This document shows, piece after piece, positions 2,083 through 40,438 of a stretch of 64,000 nucleotides of DNA (position 1 is the first letter of the stretch; each line of letters begins with the position of its first letter). Source of the DNA: Candidatus Nealsonbacteria bacterium (GTDB lineage Bacteria; Patescibacteriota; Minisyncoccia; Minisyncoccales; RBG-13-42-11); assembly GCA_019923655.1 (NCBI GenBank), contig JAHXGL010000001.1, positions 3,653-67,652 of the forward strand, given 5' to 3'. The position numbers and the translations under genes are program-made. The notes below the pieces were generated by a model. That model saw only the letters and a list, made by a program, of their open reading frames with translations, did not search any database and was not told the origin of the DNA.

Positions 2083-3741
2083 ATGTTTTCTAAATGGCCC
2101 AGTAAATCTCAATGGCTTCAATTTTTTAAGGTCCTGGACAAAAAAGAAAAAATCGCTTTTTTAGTTTTTGCTGTTTTGGCTTTTAGCAGTTTTTTCTTTT
2201 TGGTTTGCAGTTTCTATCTTAAAAATACCAGGATTGTACCAGCTTATGGCGGAGTCCATATTGAAGGCTTAATTGGCCAGCCAAGATTTATTAATCCGAT
2301 TTTCGCTCCTCTTAGCGATGTTGACCGGGATTTAACCGGGCTTATTTTTTCCGGCTTAATGAAATATGATATTCTTGGAAATCTTGTGCAGGATTTAGCT
2401 GATTGTCAGGTTAAAGAGCAGGGCCGAGTTTATGAATGCGTTTTAAGGCAGGATATTTTTTGGCATGACGGCCAAAGACTTACCCTTGATGATGTTATTT
2501 TTACCCTTGAAATAATCCAGGACCCGGTTTTTAAAAGTCCTTTATGGCCAAAATGGCTAGGCGTAAAAATAGAAAAAATTTCTGAGCAAACAATTCGTTT
2601 TATTCTGCCAGCCCCTTCAGCTTCTTTTTTAGAGAATTTAACTTTGAAAATCCTGCCCAGGCATATTTGGCGCAATATTTCTCATAAGGCCTTTCATTTG
2701 GCTTCTTACAACCTTAGGCCTGTTGGTTCTGGTCCTTACAAGTTTAGAGAAATTAAAAAAGACGAATTAGGCAGAATAGAAGTCCTGTCTTTAATTGCTA
2801 ATCCGCAGTATTTTCGCGGTAAGCCTTTTATTTCCGAAATTGATTTTTTATTTTTCCGCAATGAGCAAGAATTGGTAAAAGCGGCTCATCAAGGACAAAT
2901 TACCGGTTTTTCTTTGTGTCCCTTAAATCCAGCTAATGCATTTGGACGAAATTGGCAAATTCATTTTCTTGTTCTGCCAAGGTATTTCGCTGTTTTTTTC
3001 AACCCTCAAGAAGCAAAAGTTTTCCAAGACATAAATGTCCGCCAAGCATTAAATTACGCTGTTAATCAACAAGAAATTATTGCTTATCTGTTTCACAAGC
3101 AAGGTCAAAAGGTTTCTTCTCCTATTTTGCCGGAGATTTTTAATTTTTCCGCTCCGCAAAAAATTTTTGAGCCCAATTTAGAAAAAGCAAGAGAACTTTT
3201 GGAAAAAGCCGGCTTCCACAAAGAAAATCCTTTAAGATTTTCTCTTTCCACGGTTGACCATCCGCAGCTGCGAGAAACAGCTTATCTTCTAAAAAAACAA
3301 TGGCAGGCAGTTGGCGTAGAAGTTGAGATTAATATTTATGATATTGTTGAGCTTAAACGAGAAGTTATCAGGAATAGAAATTTCCAAAGTTTATTGTTTG
3401 GTCAAATTCTGAGCGCGATTCCCGACCCTTTTGTTTTTTGGCATTCGCTTCAGAGAAGAGACCCTGGATTGAATTTGGCTATTTTTGATAATAACAGGGC
3501 AGATTTTCTTTTAGAACGAGCTCGCCAAACCCTTAATCAAACAGCAAGAAGAGAGAAATTAGAAGAATTTCAGAACATTGTGATTGAACAAGCGCCAGCA
3601 GTTTTTTTATATAACCCTTATTATCTTTATTTAGTTTCCAGGACAATTAAAAAACCGGAAATGGAATTGATTATTACTCCGGCTGAAAGATTTACTAATA
3701 TAGAAGAATGGTATATTAGAACAAGAAGAATATGGCATTAG
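2083..3741 (+). CDS. ABC transporter substrate-binding protein, family 5 (peptide/nickel/oligosaccharide type), N-terminally membrane-anchored
   Basis: 552 aa with an N-terminal TM segment and overall SBP_bac_5-like sequence (GPYKF..., NP.YF.GKP). Confidence 0.75.
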   Translation: MFSKWPSKSQWLQFFKVLDKKEKIAFLVFAVLAFSSFFFLVCSFYLKNTRIVPAYGGVHIEGLIGQPRFINPIFAPLSDVDRDLTGLIFSGLMKYDILGNLVQDLADCQVKEQGRVYECVLRQDIFWHDGQRLTLDDVIFTLEIIQDPVFKSPLWPKWLGVKIEKISEQTIRFILPAPSASFLENLTLKILPRHIWRNISHKAFHLASYNLRPVGSGPYKFREIKKDELGRIEVLSLIANPQYFRGKPFISEIDFLFFRNEQELVKAAHQGQITGFSLCPLNPANAFGRNWQIHFLVLPRYFAVFFNPQEAKVFQDINVRQALNYAVNQQEIIAYLFHKQGQKVSSPILPEIFNFSAPQKIFEPNLEKARELLEKAGFHKENPLRFSLSTVDHPQLRETAYLLKKQWQAVGVEVEINIYDIVELKREVIRNRNFQSLLFGQILSAIPDPFVFWHSLQRRDPGLNLAIFDNNRADFLLERARQTLNQTARREKLEEFQNIVIEQAPAVFLYNPYYLYLVSRTIKKPEMELIITPAERFTNIEEWYIRTRRIWH

Positions 3742-3765
3742 GAGTGTTCAAGTCCACACTCCTAA
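3738..3765. terminator. Hairpin TTAGGAGTGT-N8-ACACTCCTAA overlapping the stop codon of the SBP gene
   Basis: 10-bp stem read directly. The same AGGAGTGTG...CACACTCCT arms occur at 40509-40538. No clear U-tract. Confidence 0.45.
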
Positions 3766-3792
3766 GATTGACAAGGTTTTTGTAAATGATAA

Positions 3793-3827
3793 GGTAGAAG
3801 GTAGAAGGTAGAAGGTAGAAGGTAGAG
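3793..3827. repeat. Heptamer microsatellite (GGTAGAA)x4 plus GGTAGAG
   Basis: Five exact-period 7-nt units read directly, 29 nt upstream of the GH130 gene ATG. Confidence 0.9.
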
Positions 3828-3855
3828 AGCGCCTAAGGGGTCAGACTTCACTAAT

Positions 3856-5853
3856 ATGCAGTTGGAGCGTTATAAAAACAATCCTATTTTAGAGCCGAGA
3901 AAAGAGCATGCCTGGGAAACAGGAGGTGTTTTTAATCCAAGCGTAATTTACGAACAAGGAAAAGTCTATATTGTTTATCGGGCTTTTTCTAAAGATCATA
4001 CTTCTAGTTTAGGTTTGGCAATTAGCAAGGACGGATTTAACATTGACGAGAGATTGCCAGAACCGATTTATAAGCCGCGAGAAAGTTTTGAAAAAAAAGC
4101 TAAACCAGGGGTTTGGTCGGGATGCGAAGACCCGAGAATTACTAAAATAGGCGACCGGTTTTATATGTGTTATACCGCGTTTGATGGAGTTCATCCAACC
4201 AGAGTCGCTCTAACATCAATAAAAGTAAAAGATTTTCTCGCTTTTCGCTGGAAATGGGAAAAACCGGTTTTAATTTCACCGCCAGGCATAGATGATAAAA
4301 ACGCTTGTATTCTGCCTCAAAAAATTAAAGGGAAATATTTTATTTTTCATCGATTTCATCCCTGTATTTGGATTGATTCAGTTAAAGATTTAAATTTCAA
4401 AAAAGACACTTGGATTAAAGGAAGTTGTTGGTTTATGCCGAGAACGGATAAATGGGATAGCCGAAAAATCGGCATTGGTCCGGTGCCGATAAAAACAAAA
4501 CAGGGCTGGCTTTTGATTTATCACGGCCTTTCTGAACAAGATAGAAAATACCGATTAGGCGCAATGCTATTAGATCTTAAAGACCCTTCCAGGGTTCTTT
4601 GCCGGCCAAATAATTTTATTTTGGAACCGCAGCAGGACTACGAAAAACAAGGAGTAGTTCCTAATGTTGTTTTTACTAATGGAGCAATAATAATTAAAGA
4701 CCAATTGTTTATTTATTACGGCGCCGCGGACAATGTTATCGGACTTGCCACAGTGAATCTAAATGAATTTTTGAAAGAATTAACGGAAAAAGCTGATTAT
4801 AAAATTGAACTTATAAGGCACAAACGAAACCCTATCTTAAAACCAAATATAAAAAATTGGTGGGAAGCTGATGCTGTTTTTAATCCTTGCGTTATCAAAG
4901 ATGAAAAAAACATTTTTCATATGGTTTATCGGGCTCATTCTTCTCAATTTTTTGATGAACATAAACCAGGATTTCATATTTCTTTTTTAGGATATGCCAA
5001 TAGTAAAAATGGAAGTACTTTTAAAAATCGTCGTCTATTTTTTAAGCCAGAGCATAAATGGGAATATTTTGGCTGTGAAGACCCAAGAATAACTAAATTT
5101 GGAAATCAGTACTTTATTTTTTATACCGCTGTTTCTCATTTTCCTTCTTCGCAAGAATATGTTAAAATAGCCTTAGCAACAACTAAGGACTTTAAAACAA
5201 TTACCAAGCATGGCATTGTAACGCCATTTAACGCAAAGTGCATGGTTCTTTTTCCGGAAAGAATCAACGGAAAAATGGTAGCAATTTTTGCTTTAGAGCC
5301 GGACTTGCGGCCATTAAAGACGGGTATTGCTTTTTTTAACGATATTCAAGAAATTTTATCTCAAGAATATTGGGATAAGTGGTGGATTGAAAAGGACCAA
5401 CAAGGTAAAAATATTTTATTTCCCCCAACGCCAGATTTAGAAATTGAAGTGGGCGCCCCTCCTATAAAAACAAAACAGGGCTGGTTGCTGATATTGGCTT
5501 ATATCACAGGAATTAGTCTTCCTGGTCCAGATGTTTTTGGCATCGGCGCCGCGCTTTTAGACCTAAAAGATCCAACTAAGATATTAGCTAAAAGCGATTA
5601 TCCTTTTTTAATTCCTAAAACGCAATACGAGATAAGATATATGCGGCCGAATGCTATTATCTTTCCTTCTGGCGCGGTTGTGAAGAACAAAGAATTATTA
5701 GTCTATTATGGGGCAGGCGACAAAATTTGCTGTTTAGCATTTTATAATTTAGAAAGATTAATAAAAATTTTATTAAAAAGCTCATCTCGCGCTTACTCTT
5801 CAAAATTCGCAGTCTTCCAAACCACGAAGGGGTTTGGAAACGAAGAATTTTGA
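3856..5853 (+). CDS. Tandem-domain glycoside hydrolase family 130-like protein (two GH130/DUF377 modules)
   Basis: NPILEPR..WE..GVFNPSVIYEQGKVYIVYRA and GCEDPRITKIGDRFYMCYTAFDG in the N-half; a second GCEDPRITKFGNQYFIFYTA module in the C-half. The last ~24 codons are encoded by a palindromic repeat. Confidence 0.8.
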   Translation: MQLERYKNNPILEPRKEHAWETGGVFNPSVIYEQGKVYIVYRAFSKDHTSSLGLAISKDGFNIDERLPEPIYKPRESFEKKAKPGVWSGCEDPRITKIGDRFYMCYTAFDGVHPTRVALTSIKVKDFLAFRWKWEKPVLISPPGIDDKNACILPQKIKGKYFIFHRFHPCIWIDSVKDLNFKKDTWIKGSCWFMPRTDKWDSRKIGIGPVPIKTKQGWLLIYHGLSEQDRKYRLGAMLLDLKDPSRVLCRPNNFILEPQQDYEKQGVVPNVVFTNGAIIIKDQLFIYYGAADNVIGLATVNLNEFLKELTEKADYKIELIRHKRNPILKPNIKNWWEADAVFNPCVIKDEKNIFHMVYRAHSSQFFDEHKPGFHISFLGYANSKNGSTFKNRRLFFKPEHKWEYFGCEDPRITKFGNQYFIFYTAVSHFPSSQEYVKIALATTKDFKTITKHGIVTPFNAKCMVLFPERINGKMVAIFALEPDLRPLKTGIAFFNDIQEILSQEYWDKWWIEKDQQGKNILFPPTPDLEIEVGAPPIKTKQGWLLILAYITGISLPGPDVFGIGAALLDLKDPTKILAKSDYPFLIPKTQYEIRYMRPNAIIFPSGAVVKNKELLVYYGAGDKICCLAFYNLERLIKILLKSSSRAYSSKFAVFQTTKGFGNEEF

Positions 5854-31405: not shown

Positions 31406-31441
31406 CTGGTATGGGCGTGCCAGACAAAAGTATGGTTCTAG

Positions 31442-31516
31442 TGGGCATGCCAGGACTCGAACCTGGAAACCGCCAAGATATAAGCTTGGTGCTCTAACCA
31501 ATTGAGCTACATGCCC
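31442..31516 (-). tRNA. tRNA-Ile(UAU) (AUA-decoding), with a variable region one nt longer than standard
   Basis: GGGCATG acceptor, D-loop AATTGGTTA, anticodon loop CTTATAT, T-loop TTCGAGT. Confidence 0.75.
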
Positions 31517-35396: not shown

Positions 35397-35780
35397 ATGC
35401 TGCGGAAATTACAAAAACAACCTGAACAAGTGAAAAAAATTATACTTTGGTTTGTGGTAATTATTATTGGAATTGTTTTGCTGAATTTTTGGGCAAGGAG
35501 CGTAGGGGAAAGAATGAGAGAATTTCAAGCAGAAGAACTTGATAAAAAATGGAGATTGCCAGAAATTGAAATGCCGGTTTTGGAAATTCCGGAAATTCCG
35601 GAGATTCCGTCGGATATTACCCCGGAGGAATTTTTAAAGAAATTAAAGGAGTTAATGCCAGAACTTCCGGAACAAGAATGGAAACGAATAGAAGAAAGAT
35701 TAAAAGAGATACCGGAACAAGAATGGAAACAGATAGAAGAAAGATTAAAAAAAACAGACGAGACATTAAAAAATGGCTAA
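35397..35780 (+). CDS. Small membrane-anchored protein with a tandem PEQEWK.IEERLK repeat
   Basis: N-terminal TM helix; 45-nt direct nucleotide repeat; overlaps the gyrA start by 8 nt. Confidence 0.5.
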
Positions 35781-38700
35781 AGATTTAGAAAAACAAAGTT
35801 TATCGGTTGGGCAGATTAAGCCGTGGGAGATTGTTGAAGAAATGAAAGAATCATACATTGATTACGCAATGTCGGTTATTGTTTCGCGCGCCCTGCCTGA
35901 TGTCCGCGACGGATTAAAACCGGTCCACCGCAGGATTTTGTATGCAATGCATGAGATGGGATTAAATCATACTGCAAAATTCAGAAAATCAGCAACAGTC
36001 GTGGGTGAATGTTTTATAAAAGATACTTTAATTTTGACCAAAAAAGGACTGATACCAATTCAGGAAATTAGAATTGGAGACGAAGTTTACACTCAAAATG
36101 GATTGCAAAAAGTAATTCGGCTTTACGAAATGCCAGAAAAGCCATTACTGAAAGTTATATTGGAAAATGGAATTTCAAACATTGTTACTCTCTCCCAAAA
36201 GTTTAAAGTTTTGACTCCTGATTGGAAATTTGAGTGGAAAGAAGCCAAGGATTTAACTAAAAATGATTATCTTTTAATAAAAGCTGACTACCCAGAGATT
36301 AAAAATTTAGTAGAACTGAATAAAATTGAAGAAAATCAACCTCAATATTTAGATGAAAATATTGCCTATTTGTTAGGAATTCTAATTTCTGATGGTTCAG
36401 TTTCTAATGATTATGGAAGAAAAAAACTTCCTAGACTTAGTTTTGGGTTAGGCGAAGCAAAAGAAAAAGCAGCAGAAAAAATAGTTTCAATTTTTGGGAA
36501 AGAATTCAATTATACTCCTACCCTTGAAGAGGATGATTATCAATACAAAACTAAAAGCGGAAAGATTTTTAATAATAAGAGGTATCAGATTAGAATTAAT
36601 AGGAAAGCTATTAATGAATTTTTCGTCTCTAATTTTGAACTAAAAGGATTTAAAGCTCCTACTAAAAAAATTCCTTCAAAAATTTTCCAATCACCTCCTA
36701 ATGTTATTTTCTCTTTTATCTCTGGATTGATTGATGGAGACGGATGTGTAAAACCTGGGAAGTGTTGTATTCAATATGCTTCAAGTTCAGAAAAATTAAT
36801 TGACGGTTTACTAATTATCCTTTTACATCAAGGAATATTTAGTTCTAAATATATTCTAAAACTTAAAGAAGGTGGCTACATTAATGGAAGAATAGTTAAA
36901 GGAAGATATCAACCCTATAGTTTAGAAGTAGGGGCAGAAAATGCTCTAAGATTAGCTAAATATTTAAATTTAGCTTCAAAGAAAAAGAGACTTAGAATTC
37001 AGGAAATTATTGAAAATGAAAAAGTTAGAAGAAATTGTGGATTTCAATACGATATTATTCCTTATGCTGGGAAAATGTTATTTGGAGAATTAAGAGAAAA
37101 TCACTTAGGAGCTGGTTGGTATCAAGATATAAATGGAAATAAATTTAGAATGGGAATAAAGTATCCTAATGGAGGATGTAAAATACGATATTCATCTGAT
37201 CTCCGGGAGAAACCTTTAAGAAAAACCCAAGTTATTGATTGGGGAATAAAAGAAAAATTAGATAAAATTGGATCTCCTCTTTTTGAATTTTTAAATCACA
37301 TTATTGAAAATAAAATTTACTTTTTGAAAGTAGCTTCAATAAAAAAAGTTGTTTCTCAAAAAACTTACGATTTTGAAGTAGGAAATGATCACGAATTTAT
37401 AGCTAACGGAATGATTTCTCATAATTGTATGGGAAAATTTCATCCGCATGGCGATGCCGCAATTTACGATTCTTTAGTCCGTATGGCTCAAGATTTTTCA
37501 TTGAGATATCCTTTAATTCAGGGTCAAGGAAATTTTGGAAGTTTAGATTCGGATCCGCCGGCCGCTCAAAGGTATACCGAAACCCGTCTTTCCAAAATCG
37601 GCGAGGAAATGCTGAAAGACATTGAAAAAAACACGATTGATTTTGCTGATAATTACGATGCCACCAGAAAAGAGCCAATGGTTTTACCCTCGCCTTTGCC
37701 CCAGCTTTTATTAAACGGTTCTTTGGGAATTGCGGTTGGTATGGCAACTAATATCCCTCCCCATAATTTATCCGAGGTTTGCGAAGCGCTGATTTATCTG
37801 ATTGACAAACCCAAGGCGAATGTGGAAGATCTTTTTAAGTTTATTCAGGGTCCGGATTTTCCTACTGGCGGGATAATTTATAACCAGAAGGAAATTCTCT
37901 CTGCTTATTCACAGGGCAAGGGGCCGATTGTTATCCGGGGAAAAGTAGAAATTGTTGAGGATGAAAAAAAGAGCCGTTCGCGAATTTTAATTTCCGAAAT
38001 TCCATTTCAAGTTCAAAAATCCTCTCTGGTTCAGCAATTTGCCAATTTGGTTCAGACCAAAAAGATTGACGGCATTAAAGACATTCGCGATGAATCAGAC
38101 CGGGAGGGGATGAGGATAGTTATTGAGCTTTCTCGCGACGCTTTTCCTCAGAAAATTTTAAACCGGCTTTATAAATTTACCGACCTCCAAAAAACTTTCC
38201 ATATGAATATGCTTGCTCTTGTTGAAAGAATTCAGCCCAGGGTGCTGAATATAGCGGAAATGCTCGGTAATTTTATTCTCCATCGCAAAGAAGTGATTTT
38301 CCGCAGAACAAAATATGATCTGGAAAAAGCCAAAGAAAGAGTTCATATATTAGAAGGGCTTTATAAATGTCTGGCTAACATTGACGCGGTTATCAAAATT
38401 ATTAAAAATTCCGCTCACAGGGAAGAAGCCCAGAAGAATCTGATTAAAAAATTCCGCTTAACTCAAATTCAAGTCAACGCTATTTTGGAAACGCGGCTGG
38501 CAAGTTTGGCAACGCTGGAGAGAAAGAAAATTGAAGATGAATTAAAAGAAATCCAGGCAAAAATTAAAAACTTATTAGTCCTTTTGAATAGTCCCCAGAA
38601 AATAAAAGACCAAATTAAGCAAGAGATAAAAGAGGTTAAAGAAAAATTTGGAGACCAAAGAAGAACAAAGGTTCATCTCCAAAAATTAGGGGAGATTAAC

Positions 38701-39678
38701 GAACAGGATTTAATTCCCAAAGAAGAGACGATTATTACTTTAACCCTTGGCGGCTACATTAAAAGAATAAACCCAAAAACATACAAAATTCAAAAACGAG
38801 GCGGTAAGGGCATTTTAGGAATGAAAACAGTGGGCGAAGATATTGTGAAACACTTTTTGCTCGTTAATACTCATGACGATCTTTTGTTCTTTACTGATTC
38901 TGGAAAAGTTTTCAGGACTCCGGTTTATGAAATTCCGGAAGGCGTTCGGGTCGCTAAGGGTCGGGGCTTGTTAAACTTTTTGGAAATTTCATCCGAGGAT
39001 AAAATCTTGTCTGTTTTAGGCCTTGGCAAAAACGATGAATCATTAGGAATCAAATATTTGGTAATGGTGACTAAGGGTGGTATAATTAAAAAAACCAGCT
39101 TGTCAGAATTTGACAATATCCGTCGGTCCGGTTTAATTGCCATTAATTTGAAAAAAGGAGACGCCTTAACAAGGGTTAAAAAGAGCGCTGGCCAGGATGA
39201 AATAATTTTAGCCACTAAAAAGGGACAGGCAATCAGATTTAAGGAAAAAGAAATCAGAGAAATGGGAAGAACAGCCCGCGGCAATAAAGGGATACGGCTG
39301 AAAAAGGGAGACGAGGTAATAGAAATGGATATAATAGAAGCGAAAAATGCAAACAACAATGAAAAGATAAAAAATAAAAAAGAATATCTTTTAGTAATTA
39401 CTGAAAATGGCTATGGCAAGCGGACCGAGCTTGTTCAGTATAAATCGCAAACCCGGGGCGGTTCAGGAGTTAAAACCAGCCAACTAAGTTCAAAAACCGG
39501 AAACTTGGTTACAGCTAAAGTTTTATCCGACGAAGAAGATTTAATCGCTATTTCTCAAAAGGGACAGGTGATTAGGGCGAAAATTTCCCAGATTCCCTTG
39601 CTTTCTCGCTCTACTCAAGGAGTTCGGCTAATGCGGCTGGACCAAGGAGATAAAATAACATCAACAGCCTGGGTCTAG
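35773..39678 (+). CDS. gyrA: DNA gyrase subunit A, interrupted by a 472-aa intein
   Basis: The exteins read ...RKSATVVGE|[20 protein letters not shown]...; the rest of GyrA is conserved, including the C-terminal beta-pinwheel repeats. Confidence 0.96.
36010..37425 (+). mobile_element. Intein with a LAGLIDADG homing-endonuclease domain
   Basis: Starts with Cys ([10 protein letters not shown]) and ends ...GMISHN, followed by a +1 Cys. LAGLIDADG motifs [12 protein letters not shown] and [12 protein letters not shown]. Confidence 0.9.
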
Positions 39679-39763
39679 AAAAACGCGCTTGACATATAAT
39701 ATATTTACTATAAGCTAAATGATAAATAGAAAGGTCGAAAAAAAACATAAAAAATATAATAAA

Positions 39764-39867
39764 GTTTCCAAATCCTTTGGCAGTCTTCCAAACCACGAAG
39801 AGGTTTGGAAACGCAGTCTTCCAAACCACGAAGGATTTGGAAACGAATTTGGAAACGAATTTGAAAG
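39764..39867. repeat. Array of TCTTCCAAACC...GGTTTGGAAACG palindromic units (2 full units plus partial ones)
   Basis: Full units at 39784-39816 and 39817-39847, read directly; the array ends 5 nt before the ATG at 39872. Confidence 0.9.
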
Positions 39868-39871
39868 ACTA

Positions 39872-40438
39872 ATGAAAAATATTTTGTCAAAAAGCATCTT
39901 GTCCTTGCTCTTAATCAGTTTTTTAGTTGTTCCAATAGTTGGGTTGGCAACAAGTGGGGCTACTCCCCCTGTTCCGAGAGTGGAGTGTCCAAAACTTTTA
40001 ACAAAGGCTCTCTGTGAGCAGACAGAAACTCCTGATATTAGATGTTTCTGGCATAGGGATGCAGCAGGCACAACAGCAGATCCTAGATGCAGGCATTTTC
40101 TAGCGCCACCACCAGAAGTAGATTTTTTAGCTGCGTTAGCCTGGATAGTTAATTTTGTTTTTTTCATTTTTATAACTGTAGCAGTAATTTTTATTATTGT
40201 GGCCGCTTTTCAGTTTCTTACGGCCGCTGGAGATGCTGAAGCAATTAAAAAGGCGCGAACAAGCATTCTTTACGCGGTAATTGCTATTGTAGTGGCAGTA
40301 ATGGCTCAAGGAACTGTAGACTTTATAAGAGATCGACTAGTAGCAGCACCACCAGTACCACCACCAGCACCAACAACACCACCAGCAACACTAGCACCAC
40401 CAGTAGAACCAGTAGAACCAGTAGAACCAGTAGTATAG
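39872..40438 (+). CDS. Secreted/membrane protein resembling CPR TrbC/VirB2-type (T4SS pilin-like) proteins
   Basis: Signal peptide MKNILSKSILSLLLISFLVVPIVG; a 4-Cys segment; two hydrophobic helices flanking FQFLTAAGDAEAIKKARTSILYA; a Pro-rich tail with (PVE)x3. Confidence 0.55.
   Translation: MKNILSKSILSLLLISFLVVPIVGLATSGATPPVPRVECPKLLTKALCEQTETPDIRCFWHRDAAGTTADPRCRHFLAPPPEVDFLAALAWIVNFVFFIFITVAVIFIIVAAFQFLTAAGDAEAIKKARTSILYAVIAIVVAVMAQGTVDFIRDRLVAAPPVPPPAPTTPPATLAPPVEPVEPVEPVV

Follow-up and report, generated by a model that had tools for sequence, protein, structure and literature searches.

The stretch of DNA analysed here, a window of 64,000 nucleotides from a Candidatus Nealsonbacteria bacterium (contig JAHXGL010000001.1), carries a gyrA gene interrupted by an intein in which glutamine occupies position 10 of block B, the place of the histidine that is the most conserved residue of inteins (PMC3196547, 2011; PMC6333167, 2018; PMC7765530, 2020). 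In our assessment, the insert is very probably a genuine class 1 intein bearing a LAGLIDADG homing endonuclease, inserted between the residues equivalent to D72 and V73 of Escherichia coli GyrA, and a member of a large family, present in both Bacteria and Archaea, in which an invariant glutamine has been selected in place of the histidine. The original prediction, made from the window alone, recognized the intein and described its block B as atypical; judged by comparison with related sequences, this description understates the case, for the glutamine is invariant across the whole cross-domain family, a trait that the prediction had missed. The family is a glutamine-defined intein allele and not a new kind of element, and it is of value as a naturally occurring system in which the first splicing step can be probed.

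The gyrA precursor, its splice site and the anatomy of the insert

The gyrA open reading frame (35773-39678, forward strand, as are all the features of the gene described below) encodes a precursor of 1,301 amino acids without frameshift or stop codon, and its product is 100% identical to NCBI entry P0031, annotated as DNA gyrase subunit A of Candidatus Nealsonbacteria bacterium. The N-extein (amino acids 1-79; 35773-36009) ends in ...KSATVVGE, the intein (472 residues, amino acids 80-551; 36010-37425) begins with CFIKDT... and ends in ...GMISHN, and the C-extein (37426-39678) opens with a cysteine (Cys+1; codon TGT, 37426-37428) that is present in all family members and would act as the nucleophile for trans-thioesterification. 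The insert is in frame and its removal restores colinearity with intein-free GyrA, as is characteristic of a class 1 intein; the spliced product would be 829 residues long, and the intein-less gyrA target reads ...GTTGTTGGAGAA/TGTATGGGAAAA... across the insertion point (here and below, a slash within a sequence or between residues marks a splice junction). Pfam finds the DNA_topoisoIV domain split around the insert and six GyrA C-terminal propeller repeats downstream of it, and the GC content of the intein (28.7%) lies 11 points below that of the exteins (39.4%).

Residues 14-206 of the spliced protein align without gaps (E 7e-82) to residues 7-199 of 6rks_A, an 875-residue GyrA chain that we take, from its length, to be the E. 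coli protein, and on which the E. coli numbering used here depends. The offset of this alignment places the splice site at D72/V73, with the -1 glutamate of the N-extein equivalent to D72, and equates the catalytic tyrosine (spliced Y129; 37573-37575) with Tyr122. The insertion point hence falls inside the quinolone-resistance-determining region, 10 residues before position 83 and 50 before the classical mycobacterial site. The coordinates, length and junctions given in the original prediction (Cys1...SHN, followed by Cys+1) are exact, and its placement of the split at VVGE/C, just before the GK(Y or F)HPHGD box and upstream of the classical site at the catalytic tyrosine, is borne out by the junctions as read directly and by the 6rks_A alignment. 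The equivalent of Ser83, the main position of fluoroquinolone resistance (spliced residue 90; 37456-37458), is alanine.

D72/V73 is a third intein insertion site in GyrA. The classical GyrA intein allele is inserted directly after the catalytic tyrosine (...RY/T...), a position that the window intein does not occupy. The mycobacterial GyrA inteins (Mxe GyrA, 1AM2) reside in the same host protein and likewise follow class 1 chemistry, starting with Cys1 and ending in HN, but they sit at Y122/T123 with Thr+1, whereas the window intein sits at D72/V73 with Cys+1, and neither is an allele of the other; the similarity of 1am2 to the window intein is weak and limited to blocks F and G (E 0.025 with the single sequence; 6.2e-7 over 47 residues with the family profile). 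In a 2016 survey, whose main text does not give insertion sites, the tally of GyrA inteins was 50, from the Actinobacteria, Aquificae, Chloroflexi, and Proteobacteria (PMC4760082), and a 2022 phylogeny of gyrase excluded 23 intein-containing archaeal GyrA sequences (PMC9348778). No description of the D72/V73 site or of a TxxQ block B was found in the literature searched, which covers only a minority of subscription journals, so that an earlier mention is possible, and a search for inteins in candidate-phyla bacteria likewise yielded nothing specific; the family is apparently undescribed so far. The possibility, raised in the original prediction, that the site is already catalogued with close homologues stands in part, in that many same-site homologues are present in sequence databases, and fails in the rest, in that no paper cataloguing them was found.

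Within the insert, Pfam detects Intein_splicing (7.8e-14), LAGLIDADG_3 (PF14528; 5e-16, in two stretches), and a Hint N-terminus. Block A (36010-36048) provides Cys1 as the N-terminal nucleophile, with C1, F2, T6, and G13 invariant in the family; block B (36169-36210) reads GISNIVT60LSQ63KFKV, with Thr60 at 36187-36189, Gln63 (CAA) at 36196-36198, and K66 as a family-specific basic residue; and blocks F and G (37360-37425) contribute Asp454, His461, the penultimate His471, and the C-terminal Asn472 (37423-37425). The N-terminal nucleophile, the block F aspartate and histidine, the block G His-Asn with Cys+1, and the Hint fold are all those of a class 1 intein, and the departure from that class lies in the Thr-x-x-His motif, where Thr60 is kept and position 10 is Gln63. 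Assignment to class 2 (KlbA type, with Ala1) was rejected because Cys1 is invariant and is encoded by both TGT (19) and TGC (12) across the genome loci, and assignment to class 3 (Trp-Cys-Thr, with a cysteine nucleophile at block F position 4) because Asp454 occupies block F position 4 and Cys1 is in place.

The two LAGLIDADG motifs noted in the original prediction coincide with the two LAGLIDADG_3 stretches (36361-36402, with acidic residue D128, and 36709-36750, with D244), and both acidic residues are conserved in the family alignment. On these features, the insert encodes a monomeric two-motif LAGLIDADG homing endonuclease that is predicted to cleave DNA. The family alignment further reveals, between the endonuclease core and block F, a conserved HLGxGWY...KFR.GIKY...KIRYS module (37102-37203), a putative accessory DNA-recognition region, as PI-SceI and PI-PfuI likewise have additional domains that bind DNA. 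An AlphaFold2 model built from the family alignment (pLDDT 91.2, pTM 0.91) locates T60-Q63 in a loop between two strands, and its best Foldseek matches in the PDB are TliVMA (7qss, E 1.4e-22) and PI-PfuI (1dq3, E 1.8e-22), with PhoVMA, PI-SceI, and PI-PkoII also matched; the Hint core additionally matches gp41-1, Mxe GyrA, and the hedgehog Hint domain, and the endonuclease fold matches I-DmoI, I-SceI, and PI-SceI. The closest solved structures (TliVMA 7QSS, PI-SceI, and PI-PfuI 1DQ3) have the architecture predicted for the window intein, in which a Hint domain is joined by a LAGLIDADG core with two motifs and by an additional DNA-binding module, and block A of PI-SceI (CFAKGT) is similar to that of the window intein. 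The family profile likewise matches the endonuclease-bearing VMA and RNR inteins (E 8e-19 and 1e-16), but these have the canonical block B histidine (TPIH, SPWH), reside in other host proteins, and are only 13-18% identical to the window intein.

Glutamine at block B across the family

As a single-sequence query, the window intein is aligned by HMMER so that Gln63 falls on the block B histidine of gp41-1 (SEEH) and PI-PfuI (SPWH), and the family profile places it on the histidine of TliVMA (7qss; TPIH), PI-PfuI, PI-PkoII (TSGH), and gp41-1. A profile covering columns 1-95 of the family, applied to 295 collected proteins, aligned 276 intein N-domains, in which column 63 is occupied by histidine in 178 cases and by glutamine in 67. 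The reading of TLSQ as a block B lacking its histidine therefore withstands profile alignment, with the histidine of the solved structures and of 178 other inteins falling on Q63. A substitute histidine elsewhere in the N-terminal splicing lobe was sought and rejected, for the histidines of the intein are at residues 273, 365, 430, 461, and 471 only, and residues 1-272 contain none.

The family to which this block B belongs is large. A word-indexed search with the intein returned 28 homologues, 33-67% identical (59% for the best full-length match) and all located in GyrA fragments, under source names that include the Omnitrophota, Woesearchaeota, Methanosarcinales, Lokiarchaeota, Caldisericia, and Bacteroidota; over all searches, the best full-length identity of same-site homologues is 59-63%. 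Their database annotations go no further than gyrase, hypothetical protein, or LAGLIDADG endonuclease. In every homologue that includes its junctions, these read ...VG(E)/CF...HN/C(L or M)GK(Y or F)HPHGD, and block B reads T-x-x-Q. An exhaustive profile search over 1.84 billion cluster representatives, with subsequent local re-alignment, brings the number of Gln-type domains at the gyrase site to approximately 58, a count drawn from 50%-identity cluster representatives plus the earlier matches. In genomes, with one genome scanned per species, the intein was found at the GyrA site in 32 GTDB species belonging to at least 12 lineages, and TxxQ is present in 32 of 32. The bacterial carriers comprise Patescibacteria, Omnitrophota (six genomes), Armatimonadota (four), Methylococcaceae (two), Acidobacteriota, and Cytophagales, and the archaeal carriers Thermoplasmatota, Woesearchaeota, Methanosarcinales, Methanomassiliicoccales, Methanophagales, and Promethearchaeota. 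One of the Methylococcaceae, a metagenome-assembled genome (MAG; L028, match 3001-4302), has the Gln-type intein at the homologous site (KKSARTVGD/) of a host that looks by eye like ParC, and the other (L025) has it in GyrA.

Across 19 aligned members with 34-59% identity, C1, T60, Q63, D454, H461, H471, and N472 are invariant, as is Cys+1 in the extein. At the nucleotide level, 33 Gln-type domains of the genome loci (32 of them at the site) use CAA 18 times, CAG 15 times, and CAT or CAC not once, even though a histidine codon is a single third-position change away. This invariance across independent assemblies, with both glutamine codons in use, led to rejection of a sequencing error or a one-off mutation, and its extension across a large cross-domain family identifies the missing histidine as a conserved variant and not as the quirk of a single sequence. 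Pairwise comparison of intein coding sequences gives pN of 0.14-0.23 against pS of 0.66-0.83, and a rough dN/dS, with dS saturated, of 0.07-0.13 (0.09 between the window and its closest genome relative, L001). Furthermore, two derivatives that have lost the endonuclease, of 171 amino acids in the Capsulimonadaceae and 174 in a Cytophagales MAG, have retained Cys1, TxxQ, block F, HN, and Cys+1, one of them on a 4.2 Mb record whose title presents it as a complete chromosome (the Capsulimonadaceae record is titled 'chromosome: 1'). Because a mini-intein is unable to home, splicing is its only means of surviving in an essential gene. On this comparative evidence, the block B glutamine is a family trait under selection and not a product of decay, and the window element is a real and probably active class 1 intein.

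The distribution of the element agrees with mobility. Among the 120 closest GyrA relatives (P0031-P0150), two carry an intein at D72/V73 and 117 have no insert there. This sporadic presence, together with the lower GC content of the intein and the intact acidic residues of both LAGLIDADG motifs, fits an active homing element. In those 117 intein-free proteins, residue +1 is Cys in 66, Val in 26, Thr in 21, and Ala in 4 (Val in E. coli); the frequent cysteine could be either a relic of past occupancy or a pre-adaptation for invasion. Against P0032, the closest intein-free relative, residues 61-135 of the spliced protein are 63-77% identical, while the adjoining segments on both sides reach 93-100%, and P0033 matches the same stretch well; the dip in identity near the insertion site (window 35950-36180 region) could reflect recombination or a co-conversion mosaic. 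A viral vector for spread between domains was considered and rejected, since the matches in IMG/VR are all distant (at most 27% identity over long stretches) and have histidine or other residues at the position; the scan of IMG/VR with the family profile detected no Gln-type intein at a gyrase site.

Two divergent GyrA sequences (P0169 and P0171; topoisomerase A and GyrA propeller in Pfam) have an intein at the same site with a histidine-bearing block B, S-T-x-N-H. In a neighbour-joining tree, which is rough and without support values, the same-site inteins form one clade, with P0169 and P0171 nested above five earlier-branching glutamine lineages; this suggests that the glutamine arose early and reverted once to histidine, although the opposite polarity is also possible. 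The two His-type sequences end in SSN/C and the Gln-type inteins in HN/C, with the exception of L026 (Gln with ...VSN), and block B position 10 may covary with the penultimate residue.

Splicing without a block B histidine

The roles ascribed to the block B histidine are a hydrogen bond to the nitrogen of the scissile amide, strain on that bond, and assistance in proton transfer (PMC7765530). In the mechanism proposed for the Gln-type family, the GyrA precursor would fold, the Glu(-1)-Cys1 bond would undergo an N-S acyl shift effected by Cys1, the N-extein would be passed to Cys+1 by trans-thioesterification, Asn472 would cyclize, aided by His471 together with Asp454 and His461 of block F, and an S-N shift would yield active GyrA and a free endonuclease, which would then cut intein-less gyrA alleles and so allow the element to spread. 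In the first of these reactions, the side-chain amide of Gln63, together with Thr60, probably retains the hydrogen-bonding and straining role of the histidine on the scissile peptide, and its role in proton transfer and oxyanion stabilization is probably assumed by other groups. Candidates for compensation are the Lys or Arg at position 66, Phe2, Asp454 of block F, a water molecule, the carboxylate of residue -1, and the invariant histidines of the adjacent HPHGD extein box or other neighbouring extein residues. Comparison of Gln-type with His-type inteins yields F2, M41, P42, L46, K66, and A79 as family signatures: position 66 is basic in nearly all Gln-type members (Lys alone in 89%) and in approximately 36% of His-type inteins, and Phe2 is invariant in the Gln-type members and present in 8% of the His-type set.

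The literature offers precedents for tolerance of histidine loss under compensation, through a lysine in Tko CDC21-1 and through bulky -1 side chains in an engineered M86 intein (PMC7765530, PMC6333167), and in the literature searched the only inteins named as lacking the block B histidine are the functional Tko CDC21-1 orthologues and the DnaB intein of Arthrobacter FB24 (PMC3196547, PMC6333167, PMC7765530). Tko CDC21-1 and its orthologues, like the window intein, have no block B histidine and splice by a compensatory mechanism (PMC3196547, PMC7765530, PMC6333167), in which, according to reviews, the lysine stabilizes the tetrahedral intermediate (PMC7765530, PMC6333167). The absence of the histidine, as this precedent demonstrates, does not by definition exclude intein function. 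Tori et al. are said to have attributed this compensation in 2012 to Lys58, a residue outside the standard motifs. The resemblance to the window intein is functional only: Tko CDC21-1 belongs to a narrow ortholog group hosted by the archaeal MCM/CDC21 helicase, with its compensating lysine outside the motifs, whereas the window family resides in GyrA, is far wider, and always has glutamine as the replacement, and no homology link between the Tko CDC21-1 intein and the Gln-type GyrA family was found. In the Ssp DnaB M86 intein, the N-S acyl shift proceeds without the block B histidine by virtue of a bulky -1 side chain (PMC6333167), but M86 is an artificial mutant with partial yields, while residue -1 of the window family is Glu or Asp and is fixed by the host protein.

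Several considerations weigh against this interpretation. Splicing is a prediction for every member of the family, all the carriers are MAGs of uncultured organisms whose GyrA is assumed to be functional, and the saturation of dS makes the dN/dS values approximate. The signature positions that accompany the glutamine (F2, M41, P42, K66) may reflect shared ancestry rather than compensation. Moreover, the amide of glutamine can form a hydrogen bond, but it cannot perform general acid or base chemistry. The block B histidine has proved essential in most inteins tested (PMC3196547, PMC7765530), and on both counts a compensating feature must exist.

An alternative reading of the glutamine is that the intein is decaying and has lost splicing through a disabling change from histidine, in a GyrA that is non-functional or backed up by another copy. 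Apart from the CDC21-1 group, the sole further natural intein without the histidine, the Arth_1007 (DnaB) intein of Arthrobacter sp. FB24, which has Asn at block B position 10 where the window intein has Gln, is indeed a single degraded pseudogene (PMC3196547); the step from histidine to glutamine takes one third-position change, and the window spans only 64 kb, so that a second gyrA elsewhere in the genome is possible. Decay is nonetheless a most improbable account of a glutamine that is invariant in approximately 90 independent bacterial and archaeal sequences under both synonymous codons, in inteins whose remaining catalytic residues and both endonuclease motifs are intact under purifying selection; the persistence of mini-intein derivatives in gyrA and the uninterrupted reading frame in the window also speak against it. 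The GyrA family differs from the Arthrobacter pseudogene in being conserved and under purifying selection. A less remote alternative, though still an unlikely one, is that the catalytic histidine is supplied from elsewhere, either from the extein HPHGD box (+6, +8) or by His471, so that loss of the block B histidine is tolerated only at the D72/V73 site. Every member does have an HPHGD, or at least xHGD, C-extein context, close relatives show the Gln-type at hardly any other site, the same-site His-type pair ends in SSN/C without a penultimate histidine where the Gln-type ends in HN/C, and remote effects of extein histidines on splicing are reported for the Mtu SufB intein (PMC8891592). The correlation between glutamine and penultimate histidine is broken, however, by L026, the covariation of His with Ser is based on one clade and two sequences, and TxxQ also appears in a few unrelated inteins of other hosts (P0246, a GyrB; P0183, P0176, and P0248).

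It could also be argued that glutamine slows the first step or makes it conditional, and that the intein acts as a post-translational switch on gyrase activation instead of being purely selfish. Conditional protein splicing is documented in inteins of other replication proteins (PMC7360933, PMC6195587, PMC4513877), the insertion point falls within the DNA-gate region of GyrA, and Cys1 and Cys+1 could form a redox-sensitive pair. A sporadic distribution and an intact endonuclease fit a selfish homing element better, and sequence data are silent on rate or regulation; we deem a switch unlikely, by a shade more so than a histidine borrowed from another position. The reading of the element as a selected Gln-type intein leads to a wider proposal, which we advance tentatively and rate somewhat below an even chance: that an N-S acyl shift independent of histidine, in a large bacterial and archaeal clade at the GyrA/ParC site, represents a second and far wider natural solution to the loss of the histidine, one that might need the HPHGD box or the family-specific Lys or Arg.

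The current mechanism for the first step of splicing is built around the block B histidine. A naturally selected and phylogenetically broad glutamine family would supply material to establish which functions of the histidine are dispensable (strain, proton transfer, or oxyanion handling), and this material includes mini-intein versions and His-bearing sister sequences which, if the interpretation holds, constitute a natural Gln/His pair within one clade for dissecting the mechanism. Mini-inteins with unusual active sites are also possible new scaffolds for engineering, and may differ in pH or metal sensitivity. More generally, uncultured lineages hold intein diversity missed by the curated catalogues of the 2000s and 2010s.

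Other inteins and neighbouring features

Some of the GyrA proteins with a Gln-type intein contain a second or third intein, at GQGNFG/C or MRY/C, and the ordinary TxxH of these additional inteins provides an internal control. The former site (GQGNFG/C...HN/S, approximately G110/S111 of E. coli by count) is occupied in P0106, P0110, P0136, P0148, P0001, P0011, and P0014, as well as in the loci L007, L010, and L033, by an insert of approximately 390 amino acids with a normal TxxH. Pfam detected no homing-endonuclease domain in the P0106 insert, and a motif of these inserts (HHKDF...NN.P.N) is reminiscent, by eye, of HNH nucleases. Classical-site inteins (...MRY/C...HN/T) are present in GyrA of the Parcubacteria, Woesearchaeota, and Armatimonadota (P0134, P0008; L014, L024, L030) and sometimes co-occur with the Gln-type intein, L024 having three inteins in one gyrA; in relatives of Nealsonbacteria, the classical-site inteins have the canonical TxxH, unlike the TxxQ of the window.

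Glutamine was also aligned to the histidine column in other inteins of multi-intein proteins (P0246, in GyrB, and P0183, P0176, P0248, and P0224), a TPET-like block B was seen in P0230, P0185, P0262, and P0275, and a TPEN-like block B in P0182, P0210, P0266, L040, and L041; several of these Gln, Thr, and Asn assignments come from partial local alignments. Metagenomic data may contain block B variants without histidine more often than published accounts suggest. One further homologue, P0015 (481 amino acids, JGI), is a stand-alone open reading frame homologous to the whole intein that lacks Cys1 (VGGG-F...) and the terminal HN (...GIISSTYLI) but in which TPDQ and the LAGLIDADG motifs are preserved; it could be either a decayed copy of the intein or an endonuclease that descends from it and stands alone.

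In the vicinity of gyrA, the open reading frame at 39719-40438 (forward strand) encodes a small protein with a hydrophobic core and a proline-rich tail (PPVPPPAPTTPPATLAPPVEPVEPVEPVV), in a region with a local GC of 0.46-0.48 against a window mean of 0.36. On the reverse strand, ARAGORN identifies a tRNA-Ile with anticodon UAU at 31441-31516. This tRNA is uncommon in bacteria, where AUA is usually read by a lysidine-modified CAU tRNA.

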